Shown here piece after piece: positions 8,666 through 45,883 of a stretch of DNA of 64,000 nucleotides. The stretch's first letter is position 1; each line of letters begins with the position of its first letter. The position numbers were made by a program, and so were the translations under genes. The notes beneath the pieces were generated by a model. It saw only the letters and a program-made list of their open reading frames with translations. It made no database searches and was not told the DNA's origin. Location: contig JAFRNE010000002.1 of the NCBI GenBank assembly GCA_017430325.1, positions 2,386 to 66,385 on the forward strand. Direction: 5' to 3'. Source of the DNA: Eubacterium sp. Lineage in GTDB: Bacteria; Bacillota; Clostridia; Lachnospirales; Lachnospiraceae.

Positions 8666-8760
8666 TCGGGTACCTCGATTTAAGTCCTGTATATATTGCA
8701 GCTGCCATCAACACACCATCCTGTAAACAGTCCGGTGTATTAATCCGTTTCATCTGCTGC

Positions 8761-20188: not shown

Positions 20189-23100
20189 TTACTCCTTCTT
20201 CTTTCTCTTCTTACCGAGGATGATGAAGAAGGTTGCTGCAGCTATAAGAAGTGCTGCGCCGCCTGCGATGAGGAGCCACAGCCAGCTGCTTGTCTTACCG
20301 TACTCAAACTTGATTGTCATGGTTGACTCATTGCCTGCATCATCGACTGCCTCGATAACCAGCTCGTAGTCGCCCTTATCACGAACCTCAAGTGTTGCGG
20401 TATTGTTTACGATAGCGATCGCCTCACCATTCAGCTTAACTGACTTTAATGAATCCTCTGTCAGCTGAAGTGATACAGTGATCGTTGTTGGCTCCTGAAG
20501 GTTATCGTCCTCCTCAACTCCCGTTACGATGATACCAGGTTTAACTGTATCAAGTATGAAGTAGAAGCTTCTCTCTGCTGTATTTCCAACCTCGTCCTCT
20601 GCGGTGATCTTAAGAGTATGGAAACCATCCTCGATCTCTGAAAGTCCATCGTAGAGAACTCCGTCCATATACATCTTGTAGCTTACAGTTGTCAGATCAG
20701 TAACGATATCGTCTGCCTCGTAGTCGAACTCGAAGTTGCTGAAGATCGGGATCAGCTTCTTGGCGTCCTTATCATTTGCCGCAACTGCGTCTGTGTATGC
20801 CTTGTAGTCTTCCTCGTCGGCAAGCTCCTCAAGATCCTTGATCAGAGGCTTTGTCTTGTCGATGGTGAACTGAACTGTCTGAACGGTCTCATTTCCGGCA
20901 ACGTCCTTGGATGTTACCTTGATGTTGTAGATTCCGTCCTCAGTAAATAACTGCTCGAAGTTAGCCGAAGCTGTTCTTGTGAGCCTTGAGTAATCATCAA
21001 ATACGATTGCCTTGCCCTTAGGATCATCAAGAGTCTTTACAGTACCCTCAAGCTTAACGTTGTTTCCGAGGTAGAAGGTCTCATCAACCTGTACACCGAA
21101 GGAAACGTCTTCATCTGTGAGGTATCCGTCAACACCCGAAAGGATGATGACCGGTGCATTTTCATCAAGGATGAAGGTGAAGGATTCAGTTGCCTGGTTG
21201 CCCGCCTTATCCTGTGCCGTGAACTCGAATCGGTACTGACCATCCTCCTTGAAGGTCTCAGAAAGTGCTGTGCTTGCGCCGCTTGCGGTAATCTCAACCG
21301 TTCTGATCGGTGTCTCGCCCATACCATCAACCTTCTGGTAGATCTTAACTGTTGCGGAGGTCATATCCCAATAGAAGTCCTCGAGCATATTGTAAGTGAT
21401 CGTTGTATCCTCTGCTGCCGTCGCATCTCTTGTGATACCTGAGAATGACAGCTGCGGAGCAGTCTTATCAACTCGGAAGGTAAGAGTTATAGGATCACTC
21501 TTATTTCCGGCTCTGTCGATAGCTGTGTATGTGATCTCGTAATCAGCTTCTGTTGTGTATGAAACTGCGCCCTCAAGAGCTCCCGTCTCCTCTGAAGTCT
21601 CAGCCGATGCAGAAGGTCTTGTCATCTTAACAATCCTTGTAACATCGTCTTCATCCTCATTTGTGTCGCTTACCGAAAGGTAAACAGATGCGTCAGTCTG
21701 AAGGAACTGCTCGGTAATGCTTGACGAATTGTTGAGTGTTGCTGAAAGTCCTGGAGCTGACTTGTCGATGATGAAGCTTACTGACTTGGAAACGGCTTCA
21801 TTTCCTGACATATCAGTTACTATGATCTTGACAACGTGCTCACCCTCATCGGAAACTGTCACGCTGCTTGCAGTTCTCTCGTCACCACTGCCTGAGAAGG
21901 TTACCGGAATAACCTCGTCATTATCTGTTACTACTATCTTCGATACGTTGTAATCAAATACTGCCATATCCATCGCAACGCTCTCGTTATAATACTGACC
22001 ATATGTATAAGCGGTGTTGAAATGTCCGTTTGTATTTGAATACTCGTTATGGTATTTGTCGATCTTTGCAGGTGCCTTCGTCGTGATCCTGATATCAGAC
22101 TGTGGCTTTGTGTTATCGATCGTGAAACCGATCTTAGCCGTTGAAGAGTTGCCTGCTCTGTCGACTACTGTGTAAGTTACTGTGTAATAAGCGTTCTGCT
22201 TATAAGTTTCCTGAAGAGCTGTTACATAAGACTTATCGGTCTTGGTAGCCGAATGATCTGACGGAACTATCTCGTAGTAGCGAAGAACGTCGTCAGCGTC
22301 ATGGTTCTTATCCTCTATCTTCAGTCCGACAACTGCATCCGATGCGCAGTATCTGTCGGTTGCGCTGTACTTCTCACCATCAAGTGTTGTGGTAAGTGCC
22401 GGCGCCGTCTTGTCGATGATGAAGCTGAGCTCTGAGCTCTTTCCTGTATTTCCGGACTTATCAACCGACTCGGCCTTGATAATATGAGAACCCTCTTCCG
22501 AAACAGTGATCTCAGCCGTGTACAGGCCGTTGCCCTGATCCTTGAACTCAGGTGTCACCTTTTCGTCGTTGTCGTAAACGGTAAAGTCCTTAACATCATA
22601 ATCAAATACAGAAATCTTTACCTTTACATTTTCCTTATAATACTGGCCGTACTCATAACCGTCCTTGTCTGTTGTGAAGTAACCTTCAACCGCCGGCTTG
22701 TAAGTTCTCTTGAACTTGTCGATCTTAGCAGGCTTAGAGGTTGTGATCTTCAGATCGATTTCCGGCTTCTGATTATCAATAACGAAGCTTGCGCTGTCGC
22801 TTGATGAATTACCAGCCTTGTCGATTGCAGTGATCTTAACCTCGTAGGTACCGTTCTCCTTGAAGGTCTTCTTCGCATCATCGTAAAGCTCTTCCGGTAC
22901 AGGATCCTTCTTAGAACCGCCTGCAGGTGTAAATACATATGTGATCTTTACATCTGTAGAGTCCTTATTAGTATCTGTGAGCTTGTATCCGATAGATACA
23001 TCTCCGTCAACACGGAGCATATCTTCAGGATCAGTCTCACCGTTAAGTGTAAGGTCGAGAGTTGGGTTAGTCTTATCGATAGTGAACTCAACCGGTGTTG

Positions 23101-26100
23101 ATGTTCCCTGACCGGTTGCTGTATCAGTAGCCTCAACTACTATCTTATGCTTTCCTTCTTCAGAAACCTTGATCTTTGCGGTGTATTCACCATTTGAGCC
23201 TGTGAAGTCTGCCGCGATCTTTTCACCATTATCTTTAACGGTGATCGTATCTTTGTTGTAATCAAATACCTTTAATGTAAGCTCAACGTCCTTATTAAAG
23301 AACTGGCTGTAAGTATAAGTTGTATTATAATGAGTTCCTGTGTGCTTATACTCACTGGTGAACTTATTCTTTGTTGCTGCCGTGTCAACCTTAACGTCGA
23401 TGTCAGGGTTAACCTTGTCGATCATGAAGTATACCTTGTCGGATGTAAGCTTATTTCCCGCATAGTCAGTAGCCTCAACCCAAACACAGTACTCACCATC
23501 TTTTTCGAAGGTCAGATTGTTTGGCTTTACTCCACTAAAGGTTATCTGCTTAGGGAAGGTTTCTGTCTCAGAACCGGTAGCAGATTTGAATGTTCCGCAA
23601 AGATATACATCCTTCTGATCAAGATTTTTATCTTCATCATCCAGTGCCGGCATGTTTACTCTGACTGTTGTATTGTAAATATAATGTGTTGCTTCTGAAT
23701 TCTTCTCCTGTACTGATTCATTAAGCGAAATGTTTGTTGTTGGAGCAGCTTTGTCGATTGTAAACTCAACCTTCTGTGTCGCACGAACGTTAGCCGCTGT
23801 TCCGGCATTATCAGTTGCTGCGATTGTTACAGAATGCTTACCAGCCAAGAACTCATAAGAACCTGTCCACGTCTTGGTTGTAGCATCATAACTCCAACCT
23901 AAGTTAGCGGTCGGAATTATTACATCATTGTCTTTAACAACAATATTGTCTGCAACAACGTTATCATCTACCACAGTAAATGTTAATGTCTTATTAACTC
24001 TCGCGTACTTATAGTAATCATAGTTACGTGCCGCATCATCAGTTACATATGAAGCCTTAACTTCATCGCCATGTGTACCTGTAGACTTCGGATCTGTAAG
24101 AACTTTTGCATTTATATCAGCAATTGGAGCAGTTCCATCAATGATGATTGTAATCGTCTGAGTTCCTAACTCATTGTTAGCGATATCATATGCATCAAGT
24201 GTTAATACATAAGTACCTTCTACAAGTTCAACTCCGGCATCATCTCCACTTACTATCTTACTAAGCTCCCTCGTGAAGTACTCTCTTGTTACACGTCCTG
24301 ATCCACCTACTGGATTATTAACAACATATCCTGTATAAGTCTCAGATTTAATAATTGAATCATAATTACTTGGAGCCGATATACACTTAATAATCACATC
24401 GTTGACATGCATATTATCAGTAATGGCTGCACTAACACTAACATCACTTGTAACAGTAAATGTCGTTTTGTCAGCAGTTACATCCTCTGTTCCTACCTTG
24501 AATGTACCATCTGCAATGGCCGGTTTAATACCATCGACCTTAATCTTTTTATTGTCATTAGTATATGTATTGCCAAGCTTATCCTTGATAGAGAAGCTTA
24601 TTGCCGTTCCTTCCAGCTCTGTAGAATTATTAACTTTGAACAGGAAGCTATATGGTTGTCCGCCATTATTCACTGTAGTTGGGAAAGTAGCACTGTCAGG
24701 AACTACCATTCCACTATACGCAGGATTACCATTCGCCCCATCATTAACAAGATCAATATCGGCAGGAAGTCCAACATTTGCATCGGTAACACTTGAAAAA
24801 ATCAGATAAACATTCTTATACCATGAATCATAATCTGTTATTTTATTATCATTAGTAGTAAAACTACTGTTATATCCCGTAACATCGCCTGTCGGATTTG
24901 TAATATCAGCATAGAATACTGAAGCAGCTTCAGTACTTGTTGATGTCTGACCAAATACATTAGTAACCGATACATGATCAAGTGTTATGCTTCCCGTTGC
25001 GATATCAACCTCAGGAGTAGTAAATGTATAAACATACTTACCCGACTCTGTCGTTGTTGTATCACATGTAATAGTGCCAATCGAATTGTTTTCTGAATCT
25101 ACACCAACTATCGATGCTGTATCCAATGGCACTTCTGATTTAACTGTAATGGTGAAGAACAGCTTTATGCCCGAACCATCAATATTGTTATAATTAGCGT
25201 ATGTATTGGAATCAATAACTACGTTATCCTTTGTTCCACTTGTTGATGGTACAAACGAAATTTCTGCATTCTCGTTATAGAATGTAAGTGTTTTTGAAAC
25301 AGTCGCTGCAGAATTTTCATCATTATCCTTTACATTGATTGTGAGATCATATTCCCCACCACCGACAGCAGGAGTAAGATCATTAGCAGGAATATCTATG
25401 TAGTAATATCCAGGTTTATCATCATCCGTACTATCCGGATCACCTATATCAGGTTTAACAGCAGGAGTGCTGCTTGTGGTATATGTCTTATCAATTAATG
25501 TACCATCTGATCCACCCACAAGTGTGACAGAAATATCATCCTCATTAATACCCGATCCAGTCATGTAATTATCAGCCGGTGGGTCATCATTTAATCTAAA
25601 ATATACTCTGACACTCTTTTTGCTTGTAAGCTTCTTTGTGTCTATAGCTATGCTTTCAAGAGCGTTATCATTATTCTGATCCTGAAGAATATCAACCTCA
25701 CTTATAACAGGTATTTTTTCGTCATGGAAAAGTAATACACCGGCAAAAGTACTATCAGCATTTATATTATCTTTTGCTGTAATCGTGAAGCGAGCAGAAT
25801 TACCATTTACTGCCCATGCGTGAAAATTCGACAGGTAATCATTTTCTTTAAAATTAATATGAAGTACATAAGATCCATCTTCAGCTTTGGTTATATATCC
25901 CGCCGTATTGTTTTCATTAACTGTATAGTTAAATGATTTCGTTATCTCAGTACCATTTGTTTTGGTGTATACAATGTCTACCGTCACCTTAGTTAGATTT
26001 GGATCTTCAGCCTTGAATCCGATATCAAACGACTTATAACCACTTTCTGTGGTGCCAGCATAAAGCTTATGTGAGTTACCGCCCGATGTTATTTCAGTTT

Positions 26101-29100
26101 TGCTTTCTTCTTCACCGATAGTCTGACTGACATAAACATCACTTATAATAGGTGAAGCTTCATCGATAAACGGAATCTCTTTTGTCAATTCTGTAGCTAT
26201 AGCCTCAGCCTCATTGTTATCTTTGTCTTTAGCTGTAATCACACAGTTAAGCTTACAATTCTGTTTTGCCTTTACGATATCTTCTGAGCTTAAGGTTATC
26301 TCCGTACTATAGTGCTTTCCGCTACCGTAGGTGTCGTTATTAATAGTTCCAACTGGCGTAAAACTGGTAGCTTCTGTATCACCTACTTTAAGTGTATAAC
26401 TATCAAGATTTACTTCGAAGATATCAAATTCAACAGTAAACTTGGTATCTGAATCTACTGCTAAAATTTGATTTGCCCTCTCTGCCTCATCATCACTAAG
26501 TGTTGACACCAGAGTTTTCTTTACCCCACCGATTTCCTGGGTGATTAATACATTATCAACAACCGGATTTACTTCATCAACAAATGGGATATCATTTGTT
26601 ACCTGATCAGCCACCTCTTCAGCAGCGTTTTCTTTATCCCTAGCAGTTATTGTATATGTCAGCTTACCATTTCTTTTTGCAGCAATTTTGTCATCCGAAC
26701 CAAGTGTAATTGTTGCTGTATATGATGCTCCCTTGCCGTACGTCTGATCAACTAAAGGTGTACCATCACTAAGACTAACAACCGTTGTTGTATCTGTTCC
26801 AATAGCAAGTACAACTGATTGAATATCTTCTTCATACACATTAAACTCTACTGCTAATGGGTCATCAGCCTCGTATTTTGTTTTTGTTTCTCCGTCCTGT
26901 TTTACAACAACATCTCTAACAATCGGTTTAACTTCATCAACGAAAGGAATTTCTCCTGTCAAAGCGCCTTCTTCATCTACAGCGACGTTTCCAGCAGTAT
27001 CCGCCGCCGAGATTGTATATGCAAGAGTTGCATATGTTTTTGCTTTTGTAAGATCAGGATCTGCTAACTGAATATTTTCAAATTTGTAATGCTTCCCAGA
27101 AGTTATATCTGTTGAAGAGAACCCTGTTGCACTACTATCAAATGTGGTTTCACCAATTCGTAATGAAACCGTAGTATTATCAACACCTACCGAATCAAGC
27201 ACATCAAACTCTACAGAAAAAGCTGAATCCGCATCCAGTTGTAATATCTGAGATGCACTTTCCGCTTCATCTGTACTCAACGTTGGAACGAGCGTTTTTT
27301 CACCCTGCTTAATCGTTACATTATTAACAACAGGTTTTGTTGCATCATACTGAAGGTAGTACGGATCTGATGTGACCGAAACAACTGATGCTTCTTCGCC
27401 AGTCCCCTTCGTTCCCTCAGCAATAATATAAAACGCCTTCTTTTCCTCTGTTCCAAAAGTATATGTGCCTGTCCACTTACTCTTATCTGTTTCATTTTGA
27501 GTTAACGTGGCCAAAAGGGTTCCTTCTGTCGCTGCAGAATACACCTCCACACTCTGTTCGGTGAGTCCATCTCCAATATCAGCTGTCACAACAAGTGTAT
27601 TCTCTGTAGCATGATTTGTTAGTAATGGAGTAGCCTCATTATTCGGTACTACATTTGTGTTATTAATCGCCACATTATCTATTGAGATAGTATTATAGCT
27701 ATATTTAACAGTTATTGTGGCAACATGAGTTAATGTATTCGGAGCAGCCGCGCCATTAGTGATTGTCAATCTATACTTAACAATATCTCCATCTAAAATA
27801 CCCTCATCAGCAGGTATTGTATTAGTTCCAATGTATTTACCTGCTTCATTAACAACAAGGGTAGCAGAATCTACATCTGTATAGGTTGGATCACTTTCTG
27901 TACCACCTATTTTTTCCAATTTTGTTGTTGCTTCCTCATCAGTCGCTATTGTTAATACAATGTTCTTAGTCTTATCAGCATCATCAATAATTCCCGCTAT
28001 ATCATCTGCCGGCGTTGTAGCCATAAATAATACAGGTTCAGTTTCCCCTTCGCCAACATGACCATCATTAGCTGTAACTCTTGTATCAAGCTCTCTGTTG
28101 ATATTTACAGTCTTCGGATTTGTAGTATCTGTATAATAAACATATCCACCATTTCCATCACTAACATCTGTAACATACCTTTGATAAACATAGTACGTTC
28201 CATCATTTGGATAATATGTGGTTAATGCCGCATTAATAACAGATGCTTGATATGACGTCTCTGATGCAAGCTGATCAGCCGTTAACTCAACACCACTTAT
28301 AATAAATTCATTATGGCCATAATAGAATTCATTAGCTCCTGCACCAACACCCCACTTATCTGTTATTTCGCCAGTAGACGCATTTATTGTATAATTGTCT
28401 GTTGAGGAAGGAGCCTTTGTTTCACATTTAACGGTGAACACCTCTACGCCAGTAACCTCGTCAGCCAAATAATTCGTACCATTAAGTGCATTTTCTAACG
28501 CTGCCTTACCACCTTGACCATCTGAATCCTCATTCCCCCATGTATAATCTCCATATCTTTGACGTGATGCAGTATATGTTTTACCATCAACCATGCTACT
28601 GTTGAGCAAAGTATTGTCAAAGTTTTCAAATTTGTAGTTATAACTAATCGTTATATATGGTCTGTCCGTCGGGTTATCTACAAATGTATTATTTGGGTCC
28701 GAATATTTTACTGGTTCTTTAACCAAATTTACGCCATCCATTTTAATAGTATAGCTATCTATGTACATTCCTGATGGCTGACCATCATTCCACCCATAAC
28801 TCGTAAATGGCGGCTGCGGTAATTCAAACGATACCTTGTCATTTTGAATATAAACAATACAATCGTGATCTGTCTTGTCATAATTATAATAATCATGAAA
28901 AACTTCGCGAAGCTTAGCCTTACCCTCAGATGCGTCTATATAGTAATTAATTCCGCCTATTAATTTGCCATTAGTTCCATCAGCCAGAAAACTACTATCC
29001 GTTACACCTTCAGTTGTCCCTTCCCCGGCCTTTGCTACCTTCTTACTGTCATTCACCTTCACAACTGTGAAAACCATTGCCACAGCCATGATGAAGGCAA

Positions 29101-29161
29101 TTATTCTGTTTCGTATTTGTCTTTTTCTTCTGTTTTTACTCATACTGAATTCTACCTCCAT
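20189..29161 (-). CDS. Giant (~2990 aa) membrane-anchored surface protein with tandem Ig-like domains
   Basis: Signal peptide (probable start MSKN at 29143, after GGAGG); many D(K)xxP-ending beta-rich modules (IDKTAP, VDKTAP, DKAGN); C-terminal TM plus KKRKKKE; no LPXTG. Confidence 0.85.
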   Translation of the reverse strand: MEVEFSMSKNRRKRQIRNRIIAFIMAVAMVFTVVKVNDSKKVAKAGEGTTEGVTDSSFLADGTNGKLIGGINYYIDASEGKAKLREVFHDYYNYDKTDHDCIVYIQNDKVSFELPQPPFTSYGWNDGQPSGMYIDSYTIKMDGVNLVKEPVKYSDPNNTFVDNPTDRPYITISYNYKFENFDNTLLNSSMVDGKTYTASRQRYGDYTWGNEDSDGQGGKAALENALNGTNYLADEVTGVEVFTVKCETKAPSSTDNYTINASTGEITDKWGVGAGANEFYYGHNEFIISGVELTADQLASETSYQASVINAALTTYYPNDGTYYVYQRYVTDVSDGNGGYVYYTDTTNPKTVNINRELDTRVTANDGHVGEGETEPVLFMATTPADDIAGIIDDADKTKNIVLTIATDEEATTKLEKIGGTESDPTYTDVDSATLVVNEAGKYIGTNTIPADEGILDGDIVKYRLTITNGAAAPNTLTHVATITVKYSYNTISIDNVAINNTNVVPNNEATPLLTNHATENTLVVTADIGDGLTEQSVEVYSAATEGTLLATLTQNETDKSKWTGTYTFGTEEKKAFYIIAEGTKGTGEEASVVSVTSDPYYLQYDATKPVVNNVTIKQGEKTLVPTLSTDEAESASQILQLDADSAFSVEFDVLDSVGVDNTTVSLRIGETTFDSSATGFSSTDITSGKHYKFENIQLADPDLTKAKTYATLAYTISAADTAGNVAVDEEGALTGEIPFVDEVKPIVRDVVVKQDGETKTKYEADDPLAVEFNVYEEDIQSVVLAIGTDTTTVVSLSDGTPLVDQTYGKGASYTATITLGSDDKIAAKRNGKLTYTITARDKENAAEEVADQVTNDIPFVDEVNPVVDNVLITQEIGGVKKTLVSTLSDDEAERANQILAVDSDTKFTVEFDIFEVNLDSYTLKVGDTEATSFTPVGTINNDTYGSGKHYSTEITLSSEDIVKAKQNCKLNCVITAKDKDNNEAEAIATELTKEIPFIDEASPIISDVYVSQTIGEEESKTEITSGGNSHKLYAGTTESGYKSFDIGFKAEDPNLTKVTVDIVYTKTNGTEITKSFNYTVNENNTAGYITKAEDGSYVLHINFKENDYLSNFHAWAVNGNSARFTITAKDNINADSTFAGVLLFHDEKIPVISEVDILQDQNNDNALESIAIDTKKLTSKKSVRVYFRLNDDPPADNYMTGSGINEDDISVTLVGGSDGTLIDKTYTTSSTPAVKPDIGDPDSTDDDKPGYYYIDIPANDLTPAVGGGEYDLTINVKDNDENSAATVSKTLTFYNENAEISFVPSTSGTKDNVVIDSNTYANYNNIDGSGIKLFFTITVKSEVPLDTASIVGVDSENNSIGTITCDTTTTESGKYVYTFTTPEVDIATGSITLDHVSVTNVFGQTSTSTEAASVFYADITNPTGDVTGYNSSFTTNDNKITDYDSWYKNVYLIFSSVTDANVGLPADIDLVNDGANGNPAYSGMVVPDSATFPTTVNNGGQPYSFLFKVNNSTELEGTAISFSIKDKLGNTYTNDNKKIKVDGIKPAIADGTFKVGTEDVTADKTTFTVTSDVSVSAAITDNMHVNDVIIKCISAPSNYDSIIKSETYTGYVVNNPVGGSGRVTREYFTRELSKIVSGDDAGVELVEGTYVLTLDAYDIANNELGTQTITIIIDGTAPIADINAKVLTDPKSTGTHGDEVKASYVTDDAARNYDYYKYARVNKTLTFTVVDDNVVADNIVVKDNDVIIPTANLGWSYDATTKTWTGSYEFLAGKHSVTIAATDNAGTAANVRATQKVEFTIDKAAPTTNISLNESVQEKNSEATHYIYNTTVRVNMPALDDEDKNLDQKDVYLCGTFKSATGSETETFPKQITFSGVKPNNLTFEKDGEYCVWVEATDYAGNKLTSDKVYFMIDKVNPDIDVKVDTAATKNKFTSEYKHTGTHYNTTYTYSQFFNKDVELTLKVFDYNKDTITVKDNGEKIAADFTGSNGEYTAKIKVSEEGKHKIVVEATDTATGQGTSTPVEFTIDKTNPTLDLTLNGETDPEDMLRVDGDVSIGYKLTDTNKDSTDVKITYVFTPAGGSKKDPVPEELYDDAKKTFKENGTYEVKITAIDKAGNSSSDSASFVIDNQKPEIDLKITTSKPAKIDKFKRTYKPAVEGYFTTDKDGYEYGQYYKENVKVKISVFDYDVKDFTVYDNDEKVTPEFKDQGNGLYTAEITVSEEGSHIIKAESVDKSGNTGKSSELSFIIDKTAPALTTTLDGEKYSATDRYCASDAVVGLKIEDKNHDADDVLRYYEIVPSDHSATKTDKSYVTALQETYKQNAYYTVTYTVVDRAGNSSTAKIGFTIDNTKPQSDIRITTKAPAKIDKYHNEYSNTNGHFNTAYTYGQYYNESVAMDMAVFDYNVSKIVVTDNDEVIPVTFSGSGDERTASSVTVSDEGEHVVKIIVTDMSGNEAVSKSVSFIIDKSAPGLSATLNNSSSITEQFLQTDASVYLSVSDTNEDEDDVTRIVKMTRPSASAETSEETGALEGAVSYTTEADYEITYTAIDRAGNKSDPITLTFRVDKTAPQLSFSGITRDATAAEDTTITYNMLEDFYWDMTSATVKIYQKVDGMGETPIRTVEITASGASTALSETFKEDGQYRFEFTAQDKAGNQATESFTFILDENAPVIILSGVDGYLTDEDVSFGVQVDETFYLGNNVKLEGTVKTLDDPKGKAIVFDDYSRLTRTASANFEQLFTEDGIYNIKVTSKDVAGNETVQTVQFTIDKTKPLIKDLEELADEEDYKAYTDAVAANDKDAKKLIPIFSNFEFDYEADDIVTDLTTVSYKMYMDGVLYDGLSEIEDGFHTLKITAEDEVGNTAERSFYFILDTVKPGIIVTGVEEDDNLQEPTTITVSLQLTEDSLKSVKLNGEAIAIVNNTATLEVRDKGDYELVIEAVDDAGNESTMTIKFEYGKTSSWLWLLIAGGAALLIAAATFFIILGKKRKKKE

Positions 29162-29164
29162 TCT

Positions 29165-30037
29165 TTAGTCATCCAGCGATTCGCCGGTATTTACTACTGT
29201 AGCTGAGTAAATGACTGTAACCATGTCCATGTAATCGGTGTTGTCTTCCTCCTCTGATGTCATCTCGTCTGTACTGCCGATCGAGCTGCCCATATCATTT
29301 ACTATATCTGTTCTGTCGTTACTTGTAAGTACGGAGGTTATATCCTCGCCGTAGCTTCCTGTAACCTTACTGCTGATATCCTCAACTTCGATCGACTTGC
29401 CGGCAAGGACATCTGTAACATCCTCGTCGAGGTCATCATCGAAGAGATCATCAGACTCGCCGCCCTCTGAACCAAGGATTGCGGTTTCTTCTTCGTTAAC
29501 CTTTGGATCGTCTCTTCTGAGACTTCCTGTATTTCCTCTGAGGACGTCTGTTGTTTCCTCGTCCGGAGCCTCAGCCGATCCAAATGTATCCTCGCGGAGA
29601 ACTTCTGTCGAATCATCATCGACCGCATCAGCTGCACCTGACTTTGCAGCTTCCTCGCCGTTCTTGCCATAGCCGAGGATCTCTGTTGCTGTGTCATCAT
29701 TGATATTTCCGAAGCCCACATCCGGTCTTGGTGTGTATTTCGGCTTATTGCTCTTCTTTTCTTCCTTCTTTTCTTCCTCGAGCTTTCCGGAATCGGCTGA
29801 CTTCATCTCAGCCTCACGAACTGTGATCTTGCTTGTCGAATCATGAATAGCCTTATTCTTTGAGACTGATTCATAACCGCTCTTTCTGATCTCTTCAATC
29901 CTCTTTCTCTGAGTACTTCCTGAAAGATTTCCAAATACAGCCGGTATCTTCAACACGAAGAAAAGTACTATCGTAAGAATGAGGAAGATGACTGCACATA
30001 CTATGCCACCGTAAAAAAGTATTTTATAGAATCCCAT
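29165..30037 (-). CDS. Single-pass membrane protein with an acidic cytoplasmic tail carrying repeated T-x-[VI]-L motifs
   Basis: N-terminal TM followed by the basic stretch RKRIEEIRK; tail motifs ATEIL, STEVL, TTDVL, ETAIL, VTDVL, ITSVL. Confidence 0.75.
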   Translation of the reverse strand: MGFYKILFYGGIVCAVIFLILTIVLFFVLKIPAVFGNLSGSTQRKRIEEIRKSGYESVSKNKAIHDSTSKITVREAEMKSADSGKLEEEKKEEKKSNKPKYTPRPDVGFGNINDDTATEILGYGKNGEEAAKSGAADAVDDDSTEVLREDTFGSAEAPDEETTDVLRGNTGSLRRDDPKVNEEETAILGSEGGESDDLFDDDLDEDVTDVLAGKSIEVEDISSKVTGSYGEDITSVLTSNDRTDIVNDMGSSIGSTDEMTSEEEDNTDYMDMVTVIYSATVVNTGESLDD

Positions 30038-30043
30038 GCGTCA

Positions 30044-32191
30044 TCACTCTCCCTTCTTGTCGTATTTTCCGTCGCGGAGGTCTCCGACTTTAACCTTGAG
30101 GGATGTCCACGAACTGTTGCTGTCGATATTTGGAACTCTGTTCTTTGCCTCATCGAAGAGGTTGTAGATGTCGAGTTTCTGGGTCTGAGTGTATTTCATT
30201 GGGTCGCCGTAGAACTCAAAGAGCGATGTAAGGTGAGCTGCGTAAACCTTTGCGATAGCGGTTGAATCAACCGAAAGGTTCTGCTCCCCCAGCTTAAAGT
30301 ACGTAAATGCGTTCTCGTAATCGCCCATGGCGATGTACATATCAGCGATACTTCTGATCTTTGACTCGTATGCAGACTGTGCAGCTTTGATGTTGCTGTT
30401 GCTGCTTGAAGATGCGAGATTGATAACGTTTCCGTCCTCATCTGTCTTCGAAGCGATAAGCTCAAGCATAGATCTGCTACGCTCGATCGCCAGACTGTAG
30501 TAACCGCTTGAACCGTCATGACCTGTGCCGTTGATAACCTCGAGCTCATAGGTTCTTGATGCGATATTCTGGTAGATCGTTGCTGCATAGTTTGTTATGT
30601 CGTATTCGTAAATAGCCGCGTTCTCAGATTCGTTGAGGTCATCCTCGGCCTGCTCAACTGCAGCACGGATAAGCTCAAGGTAATCCTTGTCAACTTCGCC
30701 TATTATTCTTGTATAACATTTAAGGATAAGGGTATAATTCGTGAACTTCTGATCGTTCGTATTTGAAAGTCCCTTATTATAGTTGTAAAAATCGGTTACG
30801 TTCACGTAAACCGCATTTGTATCCATGATACCGTTTGTAAGTGCTGATGCAACGGTTCCAAGGTATTTTGCAGATTTGCTGTAGGTATCGAATTCCTTGC
30901 TGTAATGATCGTCGTTCTTGTCATCGATCATCTGGAAATACTGTGCTGCAACTGCGTATTCCTCTTTTACGAAATACCTGTATGCTACCTGGTAGATAAC
31001 ATCCGCATTTACATTGTATGAAGGATCCTTGATCTTAGCCTCGATGGCCTTAAGTCCTGAATCCAGATCAAGCTCCGGCTCGCCGTCGCCTGTGTACTGG
31101 CTGTCAACCTTAACATACATGTCGAGCATTCTGAGGTAAGCATCAGAACTGTCCACGTTCAGGTTGATGGCATCCTTATAGTAGTTTGAAGCTTCCTTGT
31201 AATCTCCTGATTCGTAAGCTTCGTTACCGCTCTGTACAAGCTCTGTATAGTTCTCCATACGGAGTCTGTTAATACCCTTGTAACCAACGATAGCGGCAAC
31301 TCCTCCGACAACCGTAAGGACTGCCGAAGTGATAAAGAGGGCCATTTTCTTCTTATTCTTCTTTCTGAAGGTATCATCCAGCTCTGTATAATGGTCGAGG
31401 GCATACAGAAGCTCCGAACAAGACTGATATCTGTCGTTCGGGTCCGGCTGGGTACACTTCAGGATGATCTTCTCAAGACCTGTAGAAAGTGCAGGATTCC
31501 ACTGTCTTATTGGTTTCATTTCATACGGAGGCTCGCAAGGGTTCTTGCCGGTAACCATGTGGTACATGGTCGCGCCAAGATTGTAGATGTCCGTTCTGGC
31601 ATCTGTCTTGTAGATACCACGGCCCTGTGCATCACCGAACTGCTCCGGAGCGGCATAGCCTCTCGTACCGAGCGCAGTCGTATCCGCATTGTTCTCGATC
31701 GTATATTCCTTCGCGGTACCGAAGTCGATGAGCTTAACGCCGCCCTCAGGCTTCAGCATAACGTTTGAAGGCTTCATATCTCTATAGATGATAGGCGGGT
31801 TCATAGAATGCAGGTAGTCAAGAGCTGATGCAAGCTGTCTGCCCCACTCGATAACCTTTTCCTGCGGCTGCGCGCCTTCGTCCTTAAGTATTTCTGCAAT
31901 GTTGGTACCTTCTATGAAGTCCATTACAACGTAGATGATACCTCTGCTGTTAATGATGTCGACGATTCGTGGAAGAACAGGATGATCCACGTCCTTCAGT
32001 ATGTTAGCCTCTCGCTCAAGACCTTTCAGAAGAGTCTCACGGCTCTTGCTGCCGTCGTTCTTCATCTCCTTAACAGCCCACTGCTTGTTAAGACGATTAT
32101 CACGAGCAAGGTAAACTATGGACATACCGCCTCGACCAATCTCTTTCAGTATTTCATATTTACCGTCTAAAACAGTTCCCTCTTTTGTCAT
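30044..32191 (-). CDS. Hanks-type Ser/Thr protein kinase with TM and extracellular TPR-like region
   Basis: GRGGMSIVY, WAVKE, YRDMKPSN, DFG, GTRGYAAPE; one TM; helical A/Y-rich C-terminus; no PASTA repeats recognised. Confidence 0.95.
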   Translation of the reverse strand: MTKEGTVLDGKYEILKEIGRGGMSIVYLARDNRLNKQWAVKEMKNDGSKSRETLLKGLEREANILKDVDHPVLPRIVDIINSRGIIYVVMDFIEGTNIAEILKDEGAQPQEKVIEWGRQLASALDYLHSMNPPIIYRDMKPSNVMLKPEGGVKLIDFGTAKEYTIENNADTTALGTRGYAAPEQFGDAQGRGIYKTDARTDIYNLGATMYHMVTGKNPCEPPYEMKPIRQWNPALSTGLEKIILKCTQPDPNDRYQSCSELLYALDHYTELDDTFRKKNKKKMALFITSAVLTVVGGVAAIVGYKGINRLRMENYTELVQSGNEAYESGDYKEASNYYKDAINLNVDSSDAYLRMLDMYVKVDSQYTGDGEPELDLDSGLKAIEAKIKDPSYNVNADVIYQVAYRYFVKEEYAVAAQYFQMIDDKNDDHYSKEFDTYSKSAKYLGTVASALTNGIMDTNAVYVNVTDFYNYNKGLSNTNDQKFTNYTLILKCYTRIIGEVDKDYLELIRAAVEQAEDDLNESENAAIYEYDITNYAATIYQNIASRTYELEVINGTGHDGSSGYYSLAIERSRSMLELIASKTDEDGNVINLASSSSNSNIKAAQSAYESKIRSIADMYIAMGDYENAFTYFKLGEQNLSVDSTAIAKVYAAHLTSLFEFYGDPMKYTQTQKLDIYNLFDEAKNRVPNIDSNSSWTSLKVKVGDLRDGKYDKKGE

Positions 32192-32345: not shown

Positions 32346-33119
32346 TTACTTCGTAGTCTTTACGACTACAACAGTGATGTTATCTGTCTCCTTGCGGTTC
32401 TTAACGAGCTCCGTAAGGTAAACACATCCGTATTGAAGTTCATCGTTTGTAGGTGTTGCTTTCGGTCCGAGCTTATCAAGTATCTCGTCCTCGCTTATCT
32501 GGTGTCTGAATCCGTCTGAGCAGAGGAGGTAAACTGCATTCTCCTTAACCTCACCCTTCAGGAAATCAGGCTGCACGATATTTGATGCTCCTACGCACTG
32601 CAGAAGAACGCTTCGTCTCGGGTCGATCTTTGCCTGCTCCTCAGTCATTCTTCCCATAGCAACCTCTCTTGCCACAAATGTCTGATCCTTTGTCAGAACC
32701 TTTGCGCTGTCGGTCAGCTCATATACGCGGCTGTCGCCAACATGCACGATGTAATACTCACCCTTGTACATGAGTATTGCCGAAACAGTAGTTCCGAGCA
32801 TGAAATTATTTGACGAACCGTAGTTGCCGAGCTTCTGATTCATAACCTGAATGATATTGTCCCAATCATCATGAAGGCTTCCAACAGAAAATGTATCCTT
32901 GCACGCCTGCTTTATAAACTTGGTGTCAAACCACTCGCTGAACGCGTAGATGACTTCCTTGCTCGCAAGCTCGCCCTTTGCAAGACCACCCATGCCATCG
33001 CAAATAATAGCAAATGCAGCCTTACCCGTAGGCGTATCAACAATTCTTACTGCAAGAGAATCCTGATTTGTACTTTTTCTTATGCCTATGTCTGTATTAT
33101 AACTGGCTGTAAATTCCAT
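32346..33119 (-). CDS. PP2C/PPM-family Ser/Thr phosphatase
   Basis: NQDS, ICDGMGG, HVGDSRVY, LCSDG, DNIT. Start placed at 33119 (ORF track 33155). Confidence 0.95.
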   Translation of the reverse strand: MEFTASYNTDIGIRKSTNQDSLAVRIVDTPTGKAAFAIICDGMGGLAKGELASKEVIYAFSEWFDTKFIKQACKDTFSVGSLHDDWDNIIQVMNQKLGNYGSSNNFMLGTTVSAILMYKGEYYIVHVGDSRVYELTDSAKVLTKDQTFVAREVAMGRMTEEQAKIDPRRSVLLQCVGASNIVQPDFLKGEVKENAVYLLCSDGFRHQISEDEILDKLGPKATPTNDELQYGCVYLTELVKNRKETDNITVVVVKTTK

Positions 33120-33213
33120 TCTATTCTCCATTCCGCCTGTCACCAGTGCGGTCAAATAAATACCTTGTCACTAAACAACTCCATCACTTAGCCGTTAGCC
33201 GGCTGTCGCGATC

Positions 33214-36015
33214 TTATTCTCCACTGCGGAGACGGAAGATGAATTCCTCATCGCCAAGCTTAACCTTGGTACCATCTGTAAGAAGCTGCTTCTTGCCTGC
33301 TTCTATCTTCACGCCGTTAACGTAGGTTCCGTTAGTAGACTTATTGTCTGTGATATAGTTAGCGCCGTTAGCATCTCTTGTGACTATACAATGTTCTCTG
33401 CTGACTGCTGTATTGTGCTCGATCGCATAGTCTGCATGAAGCTTTGATTTACCGATGATGAACTCAGGCTTTGTGATGTAGATGTTCTCATTCGTCTTGG
33501 TTCTGATGAATCTCGGAACAACCTTATTTCCTGCGATCGCAGAATCATTAACGAGTGAAGTAACCTCTTCAACAGGCTCTTTATCAACCTTGCCGGCTGC
33601 TGCCTGTGCTGCCTGCTGTGCCGCTTCACGTCTTGCTCTCTTCTCAGCCTCAACCTTCTCTGCTGCATCCATAAGGATCTGTGGAATACCAGGATCCTGT
33701 GTCGGTACTGCCTGTGGCTGTGCCGGTGCCTGTGGCTTAACCATGTGCGGAGGAATCTTCTGGAAATCAGTATCATCGATAAATGAGAATGATTCCTGAT
33801 TCATCTCGTTCAATATATCGTCATATGTATTTGCTTTCTTCTCTTCTGTCTTTGGAGCTTCCGGAGCTTTAACTTCAGGTGCTGCCTGTGGTACAACCGG
33901 AGGAACAGGTGTCTGTGGAGCCTGCTGTGGTACTGGCTGTGCTACAGCAGGTACAGGTGTCTGTACTGCTTGAGGTGGTACCGGAGGTACAGGTGATTTA
34001 ACCTGTGGTGCTACCGGCGGTTTAACCTGTGGTGCTACAGGTGAAATCGGCTGACCTCCCTGTGGTGGTGCTACAGATGGAACCGGCTGGCCTCCCTGCG
34101 GTGGTGCTACAGGTGATTTTGCCTGTGGTGGCATCTGTCCCATCGGAGGTACTGGTGGTACCGGAGAAATTGGCTGTCCACCTTGTGGTGGCATTACAGG
34201 TGGTACCGGAGCCTGCTGTGGCTTCTGTCCCATCGGAACCTGTGGTCCTGTAAGCGGTACCTTAGGTGCCTGTGGTGCTACCGGTGCTACAGGTGGAATC
34301 GGCCGACCTCCCTGTGGTGGTGCTACCGGTGGTTTAACCTGTGGTGCTACAGGCGGAACCGGCTGGCCTCCCTGTGGTGGTGCTACCGGTGGTTTAACCT
34401 GTGGTGGTATCTGTCCCATCGGAGGTACTGGTGGTACCGGAGGAATTGGCTGTCCACCTTGTGGTGGCATTACAGGTGGTACCGGAGGAACCGGTGCCTG
34501 AGGTGCCTTCTCCTCAACCTTTTCTTCAACCTTTTCGATCTTCTCTTCGATCTTTTCTTCTATCTTTTCTTCTATCTTTTCAGCAGCCGGAGCTTCCGGT
34601 GCTGCGTCTTTCTTCTCTTCAACAGGTGTTTCAGGAGCCTTAGCATCCTGTACTTCAGCTGCCTTCTCTGCTACTGCATCGGCCGCCTTCTCAACTGTTT
34701 CTGCAACCTTCTCAGCAGCTGCCGCCTCAGGTGCTGCATCCTTCTTTTCATCAACAGGTACTTCAGACGCTTTTGCTTCAGGTGCTACCGGTGGCACAGG
34801 TGGTACCGGAGCTTTAACCTCTGGAGCCTGACCCTGTGGTGGAAGCGGCTGTCCCGGCTGGCCCTGTCCAAACTGAGGAGGCATTCCAGGCTGGCCCTGT
34901 GGTCCCTGACCGAATGGCGACTGACCCTGCGGTGCCTTTCCGAACTGCGGTGGAACCGGCTGACCCTGCGGTGCCTTTCCGAACTGCGGTGGAACCGGCT
35001 GTCCCGGCTGTCCCTGTCCAAACTGAGGTGACATTCCAGGCTGGCCCTGTGGCCCCTGACCGAATGGCGGCTGGCCCTGCGGTGCCTTTCCGAACTGCGG
35101 TGGAACCGGCTGTCCAGGCTGGCCCTGTGGCGCCTTTCCGAACTGCGGTGGAACCGACTGTCCCTGTGGCGGCATTCCAGGCTGACCCATTGGTGGTCTG
35201 CCCTGTGGTGGCATTCCAGGCTGGCCCTGTCCAAACTGAGGAGGCATTCCAGGCTGGCCCTGTCCAAACTGAGGAGGCATTCCAGGCTGGCCCTGTGGCG
35301 CCTGACCATATGGTGGCATTCCAGGCTGACCATAAGGCATCTGTCCGTATGGCATCTGATTTGCCTGATTCTGTGCACGGTTTCTCATAAGCTCCATGCG
35401 ATTTATCTTGCCCGGATTTACATTTGCTCCCTGTGGAGCAGCTGCGGCCTGCGGAACAAATCCCTGCACGCCCGCCTCACTCATCATCTGCTTAACTGCA
35501 TTTCCGAAGTTCATGAGCGAGAAATTGAATCCGTTTATTTCGTTGAAAAGTCTTGCGACATAATTGTCCTTGTCTGATGTATCGAATCTGAGCATCGCCA
35601 GAACACTTCTGAAGAAATCAGTGATGTCCTTAACAGCGATCGGAGTCTTCTGTACAGGGATCGCGATACAGATAACCTCAAGTGTCTCAGGGTTGACAAA
35701 TATCTTGCTTGCATCCCTCACGATATAGCTGATCTGAATTCCCTTAGGGCCTATGCTGAATGACTTAACAAGTCCGTCCATAAGTCTGAGCACATCAGCC
35801 TTGTTTCTCTCCTTCTTGCTGAAGGTCTCAAGGTTCGGGTAATCCGTTGTAATTGCGGAAATACTCTTGTCGTCGTTCACCTTGATCGGCGCAACTCCCG
35901 GTATTATCTCCTTACTGAGCTTCTCAGCCGCCGTTGTATCAACAACGTCAACGAGGTCAAGCTCGTATTTCAAAATAACATTGCCATTTTCATGTGTTTC
36001 AACTATTTTCCCCAT
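33214..36015 (-). CDS. FHA-domain protein with DUF6382-like N-terminus and a long Pro/Gln-rich repeat linker
   Basis: C-terminal FHA (IGKS, VSREHC, DNKSTNGTYVNG); N-terminal ~180 aa resembles 36167-37771; central GQPGMPPQFG and PPVPPV repeats. Confidence 0.85.
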   Translation of the reverse strand: MGKIVETHENGNVILKYELDLVDVVDTTAAEKLSKEIIPGVAPIKVNDDKSISAITTDYPNLETFSKKERNKADVLRLMDGLVKSFSIGPKGIQISYIVRDASKIFVNPETLEVICIAIPVQKTPIAVKDITDFFRSVLAMLRFDTSDKDNYVARLFNEINGFNFSLMNFGNAVKQMMSEAGVQGFVPQAAAAPQGANVNPGKINRMELMRNRAQNQANQMPYGQMPYGQPGMPPYGQAPQGQPGMPPQFGQGQPGMPPQFGQGQPGMPPQGRPPMGQPGMPPQGQSVPPQFGKAPQGQPGQPVPPQFGKAPQGQPPFGQGPQGQPGMSPQFGQGQPGQPVPPQFGKAPQGQPVPPQFGKAPQGQSPFGQGPQGQPGMPPQFGQGQPGQPLPPQGQAPEVKAPVPPVPPVAPEAKASEVPVDEKKDAAPEAAAAEKVAETVEKAADAVAEKAAEVQDAKAPETPVEEKKDAAPEAPAAEKIEEKIEEKIEEKIEKVEEKVEEKAPQAPVPPVPPVMPPQGGQPIPPVPPVPPMGQIPPQVKPPVAPPQGGQPVPPVAPQVKPPVAPPQGGRPIPPVAPVAPQAPKVPLTGPQVPMGQKPQQAPVPPVMPPQGGQPISPVPPVPPMGQMPPQAKSPVAPPQGGQPVPSVAPPQGGQPISPVAPQVKPPVAPQVKSPVPPVPPQAVQTPVPAVAQPVPQQAPQTPVPPVVPQAAPEVKAPEAPKTEEKKANTYDDILNEMNQESFSFIDDTDFQKIPPHMVKPQAPAQPQAVPTQDPGIPQILMDAAEKVEAEKRARREAAQQAAQAAAGKVDKEPVEEVTSLVNDSAIAGNKVVPRFIRTKTNENIYITKPEFIIGKSKLHADYAIEHNTAVSREHCIVTRDANGANYITDNKSTNGTYVNGVKIEAGKKQLLTDGTKVKLGDEEFIFRLRSGE

Positions 36016-36166: not shown

Positions 36167-37771
36167 TTAGCCAAGTTTAAAGAGAAATTCCTCGTCGCCG
36201 AGCTTGATCTTGCTGTTATTCTTAAGGAGCACCTCCTGACCCTCTGCAAGCTGCTCATTGTTTACATATGTATGGTTGGTTGACTTGTTGTCCTTGATGT
36301 AGAAACCGTCATCCTTTCTTGTGATGATAGCGTGCTGTCTTGAGATAGCACCGTTACCTGCAACGGAATAATCAACACCACGGTTTGCCTTACCGATCTT
36401 AAATACATTCTTTGTGATTATGATCTTCTCTTCTGTATTTACACGGATCATGTATGGGTTGATGGTTATTGTTGCGCCGCCACCGAGAATAGATCCGCCG
36501 GCTGTCGGAGCCTTCGCAAGTGTTCCCTGTCCGATCGAGCCTGTCTTAGCCTGATTAGCTGCATCGTCGATATTTTCGATGATCGCTTCTCCGGAATCTC
36601 TCTTTCTTGTCTCGCCTGCAACCTCGATAACATCTGTCTCGCCATCTGCTGCTTCATCCGCCTCAGCTGCACCTTCCTCAGCAGCATTCTGAACAAGCGC
36701 CGCTCTGTTGATCCTTATGTTCTTAGCCTGGATACGTGGGTTGTTTGGAACAACCTCGTCAAGCTCTTCATTCTTCAGATACTCTGTGAGACCAGGCTCC
36801 TTCTTTGGCTCTTCCTTGCTGTTAACGATCTCTTCGATTCTTTCCTTAACCTCAGCCTCTGTTACCGCCTTCTTGTCTTTCTTCTTTTTCTTATCGCCGG
36901 CCTGCTCAGCTTCTACTCTTGCAGCTTCAGCTCTTGCAGCTTCCATCGTTTCCTTGTCATGAGCTGTAAGCATGCCTGTTGCTGTTTCAACGAGCTGATC
37001 GATATCCATCTCATCAACAGGAGTTGTATCTACTTCTTCGTCATCTTCCTCGTCTTCGCCGTCATCACCGATCTCAGGAAGCACATCGCTTGCAGCTCCA
37101 AGATTGTTCATGTAGCTTCCAACGCCCGAATCATCCTGACCTTCACCGCCTGCCATGATCTCGGTTCCGTCCTCAGTTGAAAATGCGCTTTCTGCATCGA
37201 AGTCGATTCCCGAATCCTCCATCAGGGCCTCTGTAAGTCCGATCAGACCTCTTAAGTTGAAGGAGTCACTATTGATATATGTCAGAAGCTGTCCTACGTA
37301 AGACAGATCTTCATTAACATCGAATCTCATGTGAGCCAGGAGCTGTCTGATGAAGCCCTTGAACTCTATACTGAGCGATCCATCGCTTTCAACCGGCAGA
37401 CACAGGAACTGTATACTGTAAGTAGCCGGATCGATATATACAAACTTTTTATTCAGGAGAATGTAAGAGAGATGAATTGCTTCCTCCTTGAGTGTTACAA
37501 GGCCGAGGGAGATATTTCTCAGGATCGTAAATACCTGTGCCTTGTTCATTGTTCTCTTTGTAAACTCACCGAGCTCTGTCTTGCCGGTTACATCATAGGA
37601 AAGATAATCGAAATCATCATCCTCCTCGTAAATAACACTGACAAGCTCGTCAAGTCCGTCCTCTTCCATAGCATCAAGAACGTCTTCGTCTACCTCACAG
37701 CCTTCCCCGATAGTATATGTGAGATAACGTTCATCCCCAATATTTTTTACAGCAAAGCTAAAATTCCTCAT
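36167..37771 (-). CDS. DUF6382-like/FHA-domain protein with an acidic linker
   Basis: C-terminal FHA (IGK, ISRQHA, DNKSTNHTYVN); N-terminal YDVTGK...ILLNKKFVYIDP...FLCLPV. Confidence 0.85.
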   Translation of the reverse strand: MRNFSFAVKNIGDERYLTYTIGEGCEVDEDVLDAMEEDGLDELVSVIYEEDDDFDYLSYDVTGKTELGEFTKRTMNKAQVFTILRNISLGLVTLKEEAIHLSYILLNKKFVYIDPATYSIQFLCLPVESDGSLSIEFKGFIRQLLAHMRFDVNEDLSYVGQLLTYINSDSFNLRGLIGLTEALMEDSGIDFDAESAFSTEDGTEIMAGGEGQDDSGVGSYMNNLGAASDVLPEIGDDGEDEEDDEEVDTTPVDEMDIDQLVETATGMLTAHDKETMEAARAEAARVEAEQAGDKKKKKDKKAVTEAEVKERIEEIVNSKEEPKKEPGLTEYLKNEELDEVVPNNPRIQAKNIRINRAALVQNAAEEGAAEADEAADGETDVIEVAGETRKRDSGEAIIENIDDAANQAKTGSIGQGTLAKAPTAGGSILGGGATITINPYMIRVNTEEKIIITKNVFKIGKANRGVDYSVAGNGAISRQHAIITRKDDGFYIKDNKSTNHTYVNNEQLAEGQEVLLKNNSKIKLGDEEFLFKLG

Positions 37772-45756: not shown

Positions 45757-45852
45757 ACATTTCCCTCCTCTTCCCGGACCACGTCCGTAATTTTTGTGTT
45801 CATGCTTAGTATTATACCATATCTTCGGGATAAATACAGAAATAAGAAATAA

Positions 45853-45883
45853 ATAGAGGGTTGCGCAACTCACAACCCTCTAT
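45853..45883 (-). terminator. Intrinsic terminator
   Basis: ATAGAGGGTTG-N9-CAACCCTCTAT, followed by a T-rich run on the minus strand. Confidence 0.7.

Follow-up and report, generated by a model that had tools for sequence, protein, structure and literature searches.

A 290-amino-acid (aa) membrane protein with a long acidic tail is encoded on the minus strand of a 64,000-nucleotide stretch of Eubacterium sp. DNA (a rumen member of the Lachnospiraceae; GenBank assembly GCA_017430325.1, contig JAFRNE010000002.1, positions 2,386 to 66,385; hereafter the window, whose numbering is used throughout), next to a gene for a Hanks-type Ser/Thr kinase (STK). Along this strand, the gene order is mltG/yceG, a DUF6382 and FHA protein, a 933-aa FHA protein, a PP2C phosphatase, the Hanks kinase, the tail gene and a giant surface protein, with 3 nt separating the end of the tail gene from the start of the last (Table 1). 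The tail protein itself gave no family match in sequence searches against Pfam, NCBIfam and PDB. Its tail carries an array of Thr-x-x-Leu motifs, which is considered here as a candidate set of phosphothreonine (pThr) docking sites for FHA domains.

The protein begins with a hydrophobic helix of ~25 residues (MGFYKILFYGGIVCAVIFLILTIVLFFVLK), which is preceded by only ~5 residues, and a basic stretch (STQRKRIEEIRK) stands between this transmembrane (TM) helix and the acidic tail, where 59 Asp/Glu are found versus 18 Lys/Arg (aa 82-290). In 155 family members, there are 4.3 Lys/Arg in the 20 residues after the TM helix versus 0.45 before it, and the charge is more positive after the helix than before it in 99% of these members. 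By the positive-inside rule, this excess of Lys/Arg after the helix places the tail in the cytoplasm, and the predicted topology is therefore single-pass with an outside N-terminus of ~5 residues. AlphaFold2, which was run with an 18-sequence alignment, returns low-confidence helices up to ~aa 80, followed by a predicted local distance difference test (pLDDT) score of ~40 and no predicted fold over aa 82-290; the ~210-residue acidic tail is thus predicted to be disordered. The extreme C-terminus reads ITVIYSETIVHTDESL or is of the IVFIHTDEIIL type across the family, with a hydrophobic, strand-like stretch that leads into [HS]-[TS]-[DE]-E-x-[LI]. This end is not part of the T-x-x-L array, and AlphaFold2 assigns no confident structure to it.

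Six copies of T-x-[VI]-L are found in the tail, with their threonines at aa 118, 144, 163, 185, 208 and 234 and with two to four acidic residues before each, and the array spans 29327-29686 with a start-to-start spacing of 19-26 aa. A previous sequence-only reading of the window had placed six such motifs, each preceded by Asp/Glu, at 29325-29695, and all of them were recovered together with their acidic residues, while the spacers proved narrower (15-22 aa) than the 15-27 aa that had been given. The weaker copies RTDIV, STDEM and NTDYM that it listed were likewise recovered in the tail; the related ETDVI and VTSLV occur in the FHA proteins and DTTAL in the activation loop of the kinase, as it had stated. 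A seventh match, TIVL at aa 22, lies inside the TM helix and was not counted. In 100,000 composition-preserving shuffles of the tail, the mean number of T-x-[VI]-L motifs was 0.13 and the maximum 4, compared with the 6 observed. The stricter pattern [DE][DE]xT[DESAT][VI]L was searched in all open reading frames (ORFs) of at least 80 aa of the 2.99-Mb, 99%-complete genome (1.33 million residues), and of its 14 occurrences there, 5 fall in the tail protein. No DNA tandem repeats were found under the array, which argues for maintenance of the copies at the peptide level rather than for a recent duplication.

Relatives of the tail protein were collected by a word-indexed search (29 sequences) and by an exhaustive phmmer search (625 representatives, E <= 0.001). 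In an alignment of 18 sequences, which reaches down to 34% identity, nine tail columns are invariant (L121, T144, L147, T163, L166, T234, V236, L237 and E286); eight of them are motif residues and E286 is the ninth, while the spacers drift. Leu at position +3 of the motif Thr is invariant or nearly so in this alignment as well as in one of 48 sequences. The consensus over 832 motif instances is D-E-E-[A/E]-T-D-V-L-[R/T/S], and 210 unique full-length members contain 1335 T-x-[VIL]-L versus 44 S-x-[VIL]-L (~30:1) against a nearly even background of 4487 Thr and 4077 Ser in their tails. These 210 members have a median of 7 motifs per protein (range 0-15), spaced by a median of 15 residues (range 7-32). 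The flavor of the motif follows lineage, with E-[AE]-T-D-V-L in most Lachnospiraceae and ETTVL, ATTVL, ATTLL or NETAVL in Ruminococcus, Acutalibacteraceae and other Lachnospiraceae. Judged by these alignments, the T-x-x-L motif is the feature that defines the tail-protein family; besides the array, the modules conserved family-wide are the TM helix with its basic juxtamembrane segment and the hydrophobic C-terminal stretch with its acidic tip. Copy number and spacing that vary around a constant motif would be as expected for linear motifs in a disordered region. The sequence-only reading had depended on conservation of the motif in homologs and on a cytoplasmic tail, and both hold in the family, the former in the eight invariant columns and the Thr:Ser ratio of the 210 relatives, the latter as a prediction by the positive-inside rule for 99% of the 155 members.

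The densest array seen is that of locus L114 (G022:C51, tail ORF 7985-9037), which stands outside the 210-member count and has ~17 T-[DS]-[VI]-L motifs at 8-9-residue spacing. At another locus (L101), six NETxVL motifs follow an exact 8-residue period.

Table 1. Positions of the tail gene, its parts and the other genes discussed (window numbering)
Feature	Position	Strand	Basis
Tail protein gene (290 aa, TseH-like; TM anchor, basic juxtamembrane segment, acidic disordered tail)	29165..30037	(-)	ORF translation and homologs
N-terminal TM helix, aa 2-29	29951..30034	(-)	AlphaFold2 helix, pLDDT 83-94; Lys/Arg gather after the helix
Conserved basic juxtamembrane segment, aa 31-80 (IPAVFGNLSGSTQRKRIEEIRK...)	29798..29947	(-)	Invariant columns, 18-sequence alignment
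Motif 1, T118-E-I-L (DDTATEILG)	29675..29686	(-)	L121 invariant in 18-sequence alignment; T118 invariant in 48-sequence alignment
Motif 2, T144-E-V-L (DDDSTEVLR)	29597..29608	(-)	T144 and L147 invariant (18-sequence alignment)
Motif 3, T163-D-V-L (DEETTDVLR)	29540..29551	(-)	T163 and L166 invariant (18-sequence alignment)
Motif 4, T185-A-I-L (NEEETAILG)	29474..29485	(-)	Close relatives keep EEETAILG
Motif 5, T208-D-V-L (DEDVTDVLA)	29405..29416	(-)	T208 and L211 nearly invariant in 48 sequences
Motif 6, T234-S-V-L (GEDITSVLT)	29327..29338	(-)	T234, V236 and L237 invariant (18-sequence alignment)
Conserved C-terminal element, aa 272-290 (MVTVIYSATVVNTGESLDD): hydrophobic strand-like stretch, then acidic end	29168..29224	(-)	Family-wide pattern
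mltG/yceG	37848-39023	(-)	First in the gene order given above
534-aa DUF6382 and FHA protein (TseJ-like, GK type; proposed reader)	36167..37771	(-)	DUF6382 4.2e-11, FHA 1.5e-15
933-aa FHA protein (N-terminal domain, ~500 aa Pro/Gln-rich linker, C-terminal GK-type FHA; proposed reader)	33214..36015	(-)	FHA 6e-15; GK/SxxH/NGT residues
PP2C phosphatase (proposed eraser)	32346..33155	(-)	PP2C_2, 29.5 bits
Hanks-type Ser/Thr kinase (one TM, TPR-like ectodomain; proposed writer)	30044..32191	(-)	Pkinase 1.1e-46
2990-aa surface protein (TseI-like): signal peptide, Ig-like/OmpL47-type repeats, C-terminal TM, KKRKKK stub	20189..29161	(-)	Downstream of tail gene
Third DUF6382-TM-FHA paralog (canonical GR type; possible additional reader)	60593..62002	(-)	DUF6382 6.5e-31, FHA 2.1e-18

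A scan of one genome per GTDB species yielded 64 related loci, mostly from Lachnospiraceae, such as Lachnospiraceae bacterium C6A11 (80% identity), Eubacterium ruminantium, Coprococcus and Wujia, and a few from Ruminococcus or Acutalibacteraceae. The order [YceG]-FHA-[FHA]-PP2C-STK-tail-giant is kept in all 64, where the genes are recognised and the contig reaches, and the tail ORF is recognised in 62 of them. The kinase gene is also followed by the tail gene in 16 of 18 further Lachnospiraceae loci, while no tail ORF was recognised in the other two (L108 and L109). The pair is flanked by PP2C and the giant protein wherever the locus extends far enough, and FHA proteins lie beside it in most. 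The adjacency of kinase and tail gene, which the sequence-only reading had pointed out, is hence a conserved one that extends to PP2C and FHA neighbors. The cassette usually lies upstream of a pair formed by SCIFF and a radical-SAM gene and of secDF, its site being between mltG and secDF.

In the window, a PD-(D/E)XK transposase-like ORF (18777-19742, minus strand) separates the giant surface gene from the radical-SAM/SecDF genes; the same interval of relatives holds the SCIFF peptide and the radical-SAM gene without this ORF. An 895-aa ORF at 43186-45873 (minus strand) has no Pfam match. The third DUF6382-TM-FHA paralog stands at the edge of a Tad pilus locus and has the architecture of TsfJ of the type VII secretion system (T7SS) variant T7SSf (Garrett et al., 2024). 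One of the related loci (L020, CAVCCL010000248.1) is labelled Bifidobacterium catenulatum, while its gene order is identical to, and its proteins are near-identical with, those of Coprococcus aceti (L021); the record is probably a mis-binned or mislabelled metagenome-assembled genome, because of this gene order and because the family sample resembles Lachnospiraceae.

The genes of the cassette resemble parts of T7SSd and T7SSe, for which a TM kinase (TsxD), a PP2C phosphatase (TseF), a DUF6382 and FHA protein (TseJ) and a protein with Sec signal, Ig-like domains and C-terminal TM helix (TsxI) were described, together with TseH/TsdH, which has a cytoplasmic unstructured region (Garrett, Higginson & Palmer, 2024, Microlife, PMC11217815). 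The same paper gives neither a motif nor a function for TsxH, and several new T7SS variants were suggested to be regulated by Thr phosphorylation, without a named phospho-acceptor for the FHA domains (Garrett et al., 2024, PMC11217815). For comparison, we chose two T7SS-linked loci, apparently of Lachnospiraceae (L094 and L096), which are not drawn from the accession list of Garrett et al. (2024). Both have the order EssC (FHA and FtsK), WXG100, FHA protein, PP2C, kinase and then a TM protein of 135-153 aa. Three WXG100 proteins are Pfam-confirmed in L096, while L094 has small ORFs, unscanned, at the same position; the FHA protein is a Pfam-confirmed DUF6382 and FHA protein in L096 and combines a protease-like part, a TM helix and an FHA domain in L094. 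The PP2C and the kinase of these loci match those of the window at ~1e-75 and ~1e-140, respectively.

In an hhalign comparison, aa 1-59 of the tail family matched the post-kinase TM proteins of L096 and L094 at probabilities of 96.8% and 97.0% over 53-56 columns, the region in common being the TM helix and the start of the juxtamembrane segment. Their tails are short and contain EETSDL, GDTVLL, EETSAL and EATAVM in L094 and ETEIF, ATTLL and EQTSLL in L096, i.e., three to four acidic T-x-x-[L/M/F] motifs each. Because of this match to the post-kinase TM protein of T7SSe-type loci, a relation that the sequence-only reading missed, the window protein is probably a long-tailed member of the TseH family, with H rather than K suggested by gene position.

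A survey covered 121 genomes from the family of one related locus, apparently Lachnospiraceae, of which 32 have a WXG100 match (E <= 0.001; 26 above the Pfam cut-off) and 22 have the tail family, 11 of these 22 being without any WXG100 match. The genome to which the window belongs contains no WXG100 gene, and a search of it for an EssC-type ATPase returned, as FtsK-family matches, FtsK, a TraG-like ATPase and two weaker, unexamined P-loop matches, one of which adjoins the TraG-like ORF on contig C22. A 1452-aa ORF on C22 had been a candidate for EssC and was rejected, as it is a conjugative TraG/VirB4-like ATPase. No FtsK/EssC-like gene was found within 10 kb of the 64 related loci. Set against L094 and L096, the WXG100-free genomes that have the family therefore show that the kinase/PP2C/FHA/tail/giant cassette occurs both in T7SS loci and alone.

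As candidate writer, the adjacent kinase retains the Gly-rich loop, the VAIK-type Lys, the catalytic YRDxKxxN, DFG and APE, and is apparently active. Its activation loop, N-A-D-T-T-A-L-G-T, is nearly invariant among orthologs and places Thr in an acidic T-x-x-L context. The distance from APE to the TM helix is ~99 aa, which leaves a juxtamembrane linker of ~10-15 residues. Whereas some receptor kinases have docking sites within a long linker of their own, a separate protein may provide them in trans here. As candidate readers, the FHA domains of the operon keep the Gly, the Ser-x-x-His and the Asn-Gly-Thr of the pThr pocket.

The motif is also found in cis next to FHA domains. In L061, L068-L070 and L072-L074, which are most of the Oscillospirales-type loci, the FHA domain of the single FHA protein is preceded, at distances of 35 and 47 residues, by two GETTVL-type motifs, and the tail motif there is ETTVL as well; the FHA protein of L065 has a single copy. 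In the T7SS-linked FHA proteins, EEGTVLL or EESTTLL stands just before the FHA domain. These cis copies are evidence of a tie between motif and FHA domain that does not depend on the tail protein; they are not general in Lachnospiraceae and are regular only in Oscillospirales-type and T7SS-linked loci. A clean pairing of cis motif and GK-type FHA domain within the genome was considered and dropped, because such a motif, EEKVTRLV, also precedes the FHA domain of the GR-type Tad-locus paralog, by 23 aa.

Further FHA proteins and motif-bearing proteins of this genome lie outside the window. On contig C37, eight FHA-domain ORFs and three Hanks kinases are found within ~20 kb (~144-164 kb), with a ninth FHA ORF at ~96 kb, and several of the clustered FHA domains are N-terminal and joined to TM or polytopic proteins. 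Two GK-type FHA proteins (C20:248223-249161 and C37:152451-153467) have DTTVL or ETMVL ~32-37 aa upstream of the FHA domain. A 372-aa protein (C17:35875-36993, minus strand) carries LTGEEGTTVLS in two exact copies close to the N-terminus, as well as a C-terminal TM helix and a Pro/Gln-rich region that resembles the one in the 933-aa FHA protein; since it is the sole other ORF of the genome with at least two strict acidic T-x-V-L motifs, it is a candidate for a second FHA ligand or kinase substrate.

We consider it reasonably probable that the tail is a multivalent pThr docking platform, which is written by the kinase, erased by PP2C and read by FHA domains. This reading is the most economical one and agrees with all of the sequence tests. 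The adjacent kinase with its TPR ectodomain would phosphorylate the motif threonines, the adjacent PP2C would remove the phosphates, and each phospho-motif, defined by pThr and Leu at +3, would dock one FHA domain. The two FHA proteins whose genes lie upstream are the candidate readers, possibly joined by the third paralog from the Tad locus, and the tail would act as a switchable multivalent platform at the membrane that supplies the docking sites in trans. Phosphorylation by the neighboring kinase, FHA binding, multivalency and a downstream output are what we infer in this scheme. The strongest single argument for it is the ~30:1 preference of Thr over Ser in combination with the invariant Leu at +3. 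Sites that are recognized by a kinase alone usually tolerate Ser, hence the two features together would reflect the constraints of an FHA reader rather than those of a kinase alone. FHA domains are pThr-specific and show pT+3 selectivity (PMC3953482).

Several observations weigh against this platform. The motifs are just 7-9 residues apart in some relatives, which speaks against simultaneous occupancy of every site; the variable spacing suggests avidity or rebinding rather than a fixed geometry. The operon FHA domains carry Lys at the position of the canonical phosphate-contacting Arg, as do 43 of 43 FHA1 and 43 of 55 FHA2 orthologs. Gly-Lys is also seen in some EssC FHA domains of T7SS-linked loci, whereas Gly-Arg is present in the Tad-locus paralog and nine other FHA domains of the genome; a Lys might still contact the phosphate. 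Moreover, the genome holds 7 Hanks kinases and 14 FHA domains, so that writer and reader need not be neighbors, and the ETDVI and VTSLV of the two FHA proteins in the window are conserved only among close Lachnospiraceae relatives. Mycobacterial kinases are reportedly directed to a substrate motif with acidic residues upstream and a hydrophobic residue at +3, which the tail motif matches; we give this likeness little weight.

The unusual FHA pocket would be accounted for if the motifs were linear elements working independently of phosphorylation, which bind DUF6382, the kinase or PP2C, or self-assemble as short beta-strands, and thereby form a constitutive tether. The beta-branched residues of T-x-V-L do have strand propensity, the FHA domains of T7SSb EssC were reported to bind EssB without phosphorylation (PMC11217815), and the strand-like C-terminal element would be at least one interaction module of the tail that does not involve pThr. 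However, a 30:1 excess of Thr over Ser at a solvent-exposed position of an acidic disordered region is hard to explain without phospho-specific reading, a PP2C and an apparently active kinase accompany the gene in every case, and the Ser-x-x-His and Asn of the pThr pocket are retained, hence we regard this explanation as rather unlikely. Phosphorylation might, on the other hand, take place without any FHA platform, the tail being a multi-site kinase substrate that serves as phosphate sink or decoy buffering the kinase output, or that inhibits the kinase or the giant protein's basic cytoplasmic stub in a charge-regulated manner. The extreme acidity of aa 82-290 fits such a role, as does the KKRKKK with which the giant protein ends inside the cell, and some relatives have their motifs packed too densely for each site to take an FHA domain of its own. 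It does not account for the strict requirement for Thr and for Leu at +3, which are constraints of a reader and not of a writer, nor for the FHA genes that accompany the cassette in nearly every locus and the same motif beside FHA domains in cis; we hold it to be quite unlikely.

Both of these explanations share the cytoplasmic tail with the docking platform. A reversed signal-anchor would instead place the tail outside, to work together with the giant surface protein as an acidic spacer that is perhaps O-glycosylated or binds cations. The gene of the giant protein lies immediately downstream and almost overlaps, and surface proteins do contain Thr-rich acidic repeats. We hold this to be very improbable, given the Lys/Arg cluster after the TM helix in 99% of the 155 members and the ~5 residues with 0.45 Lys/Arg before it, a hydrophobic stretch of ~25 residues that is too long for a cleaved signal peptide, the cytoplasmic unstructured region described for TseH/TsdH (PMC11217815) and the recurrence of the motif in clearly cytoplasmic FHA proteins. 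The bias of the tail toward Asp, Glu, Ser and Thr could in principle generate such motifs by chance or as a low-complexity artefact, yet none of the 100,000 shuffles reached six, conservation is found in the motif residues and not in the drifting spacers, and 1335 instances are spread over 210 relatives, so that chance can be taken as refuted.

Four described systems come closest to the proposed docking platform. TseH/TsdH of T7SSe/T7SSd (PMC11217815) share the single N-terminal TM helix followed by an unstructured cytoplasmic region, and are likewise encoded with a TM kinase, a PP2C, a DUF6382 and FHA protein and a large protein with Sec signal, Ig-like domains and C-terminal TM helix, whereas the window protein has a tail about twice as long with six motifs, and its genome is without WXG100 or EssC. 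In the T6SS (type VI secretion system) of Agrobacterium tumefaciens, PpkA phosphorylates the membrane protein TssL at Thr14, and the pThr recruits Fha, which switches the T6SS on (Lin et al., 2014, PMC3953482). A TM Hanks kinase, a membrane protein with a cytoplasmic Thr and the recruitment of an FHA protein to a surface machine are shared with the present proposal, and the cluster encodes a phosphatase as well (PppA; a TagF-PppA fusion in A. tumefaciens), but TssL has one site (Thr14) on a folded core component, no array and no sequence relationship to the tail protein. In Rv1747 of Mycobacterium tuberculosis, pT152 and pT210 in a disordered linker bind the FHA domains of the same protein (PMC8339232). 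There, too, a neighboring kinase (PknF) writes the sites in a membrane-proximal disordered linker and multivalent FHA-pThr contacts drive clustering; however, reader and two sites are on one polypeptide, while the window protein is separate and has 6 copies, with up to ~17 in relatives. GarA/OdhI, which combine an N-terminal ETTS motif with an FHA domain, share the acidic E-T-T-x-V-[F/L] motif, as in the GarA phosphopeptide VTVETTSVFR (PMC4322841): the Oscillospirales tail motif ETTVL is close to the ETTSVF of GarA, and the cis motif upstream of the FHA domain in Oscillospirales-type FHA proteins is a further likeness. In contrast to the tail protein, which has no FHA domain, GarA is soluble and binds its one motif intramolecularly.

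A wider and more speculative view, which we rate as unlikely, takes the cassette as a free-standing portable phospho-switch for surface sensing that was borrowed by T7SSe and perhaps by Tad pili. The phosphorylated tail and the Pro/Gln-rich FHA proteins would then form a multivalent condensate-like hub under the membrane, which links a cytoplasmic output, e.g., the neighboring MltG or the FHA paralog of the Tad locus, to the TPR-ectodomain kinase and the giant envelope-spanning protein, and the number of motifs (1 to ~17) would tune the valency.

While pThr-FHA docking and the TseH component as such are already known, no published description of the conserved Thr-x-x-Leu array as the defining feature of the family, nor of the free-standing cassette in genomes without T7SS, was found in the literature searched. 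The array offers a concrete candidate for the phospho-acceptor in the TseH-like family, with the exact residues named. The presence of the family in genomes without T7SS shows the kinase/PP2C/FHA/tail/giant set to be an independent module, which is fixed at a housekeeping position, between mltG and secDF, in many Lachnospiraceae of rumen and gut. If the proposal is true, a dedicated membrane protein with a tunable pThr docking array would be a bacterial counterpart of the multi-site scaffolds of eukaryotes.

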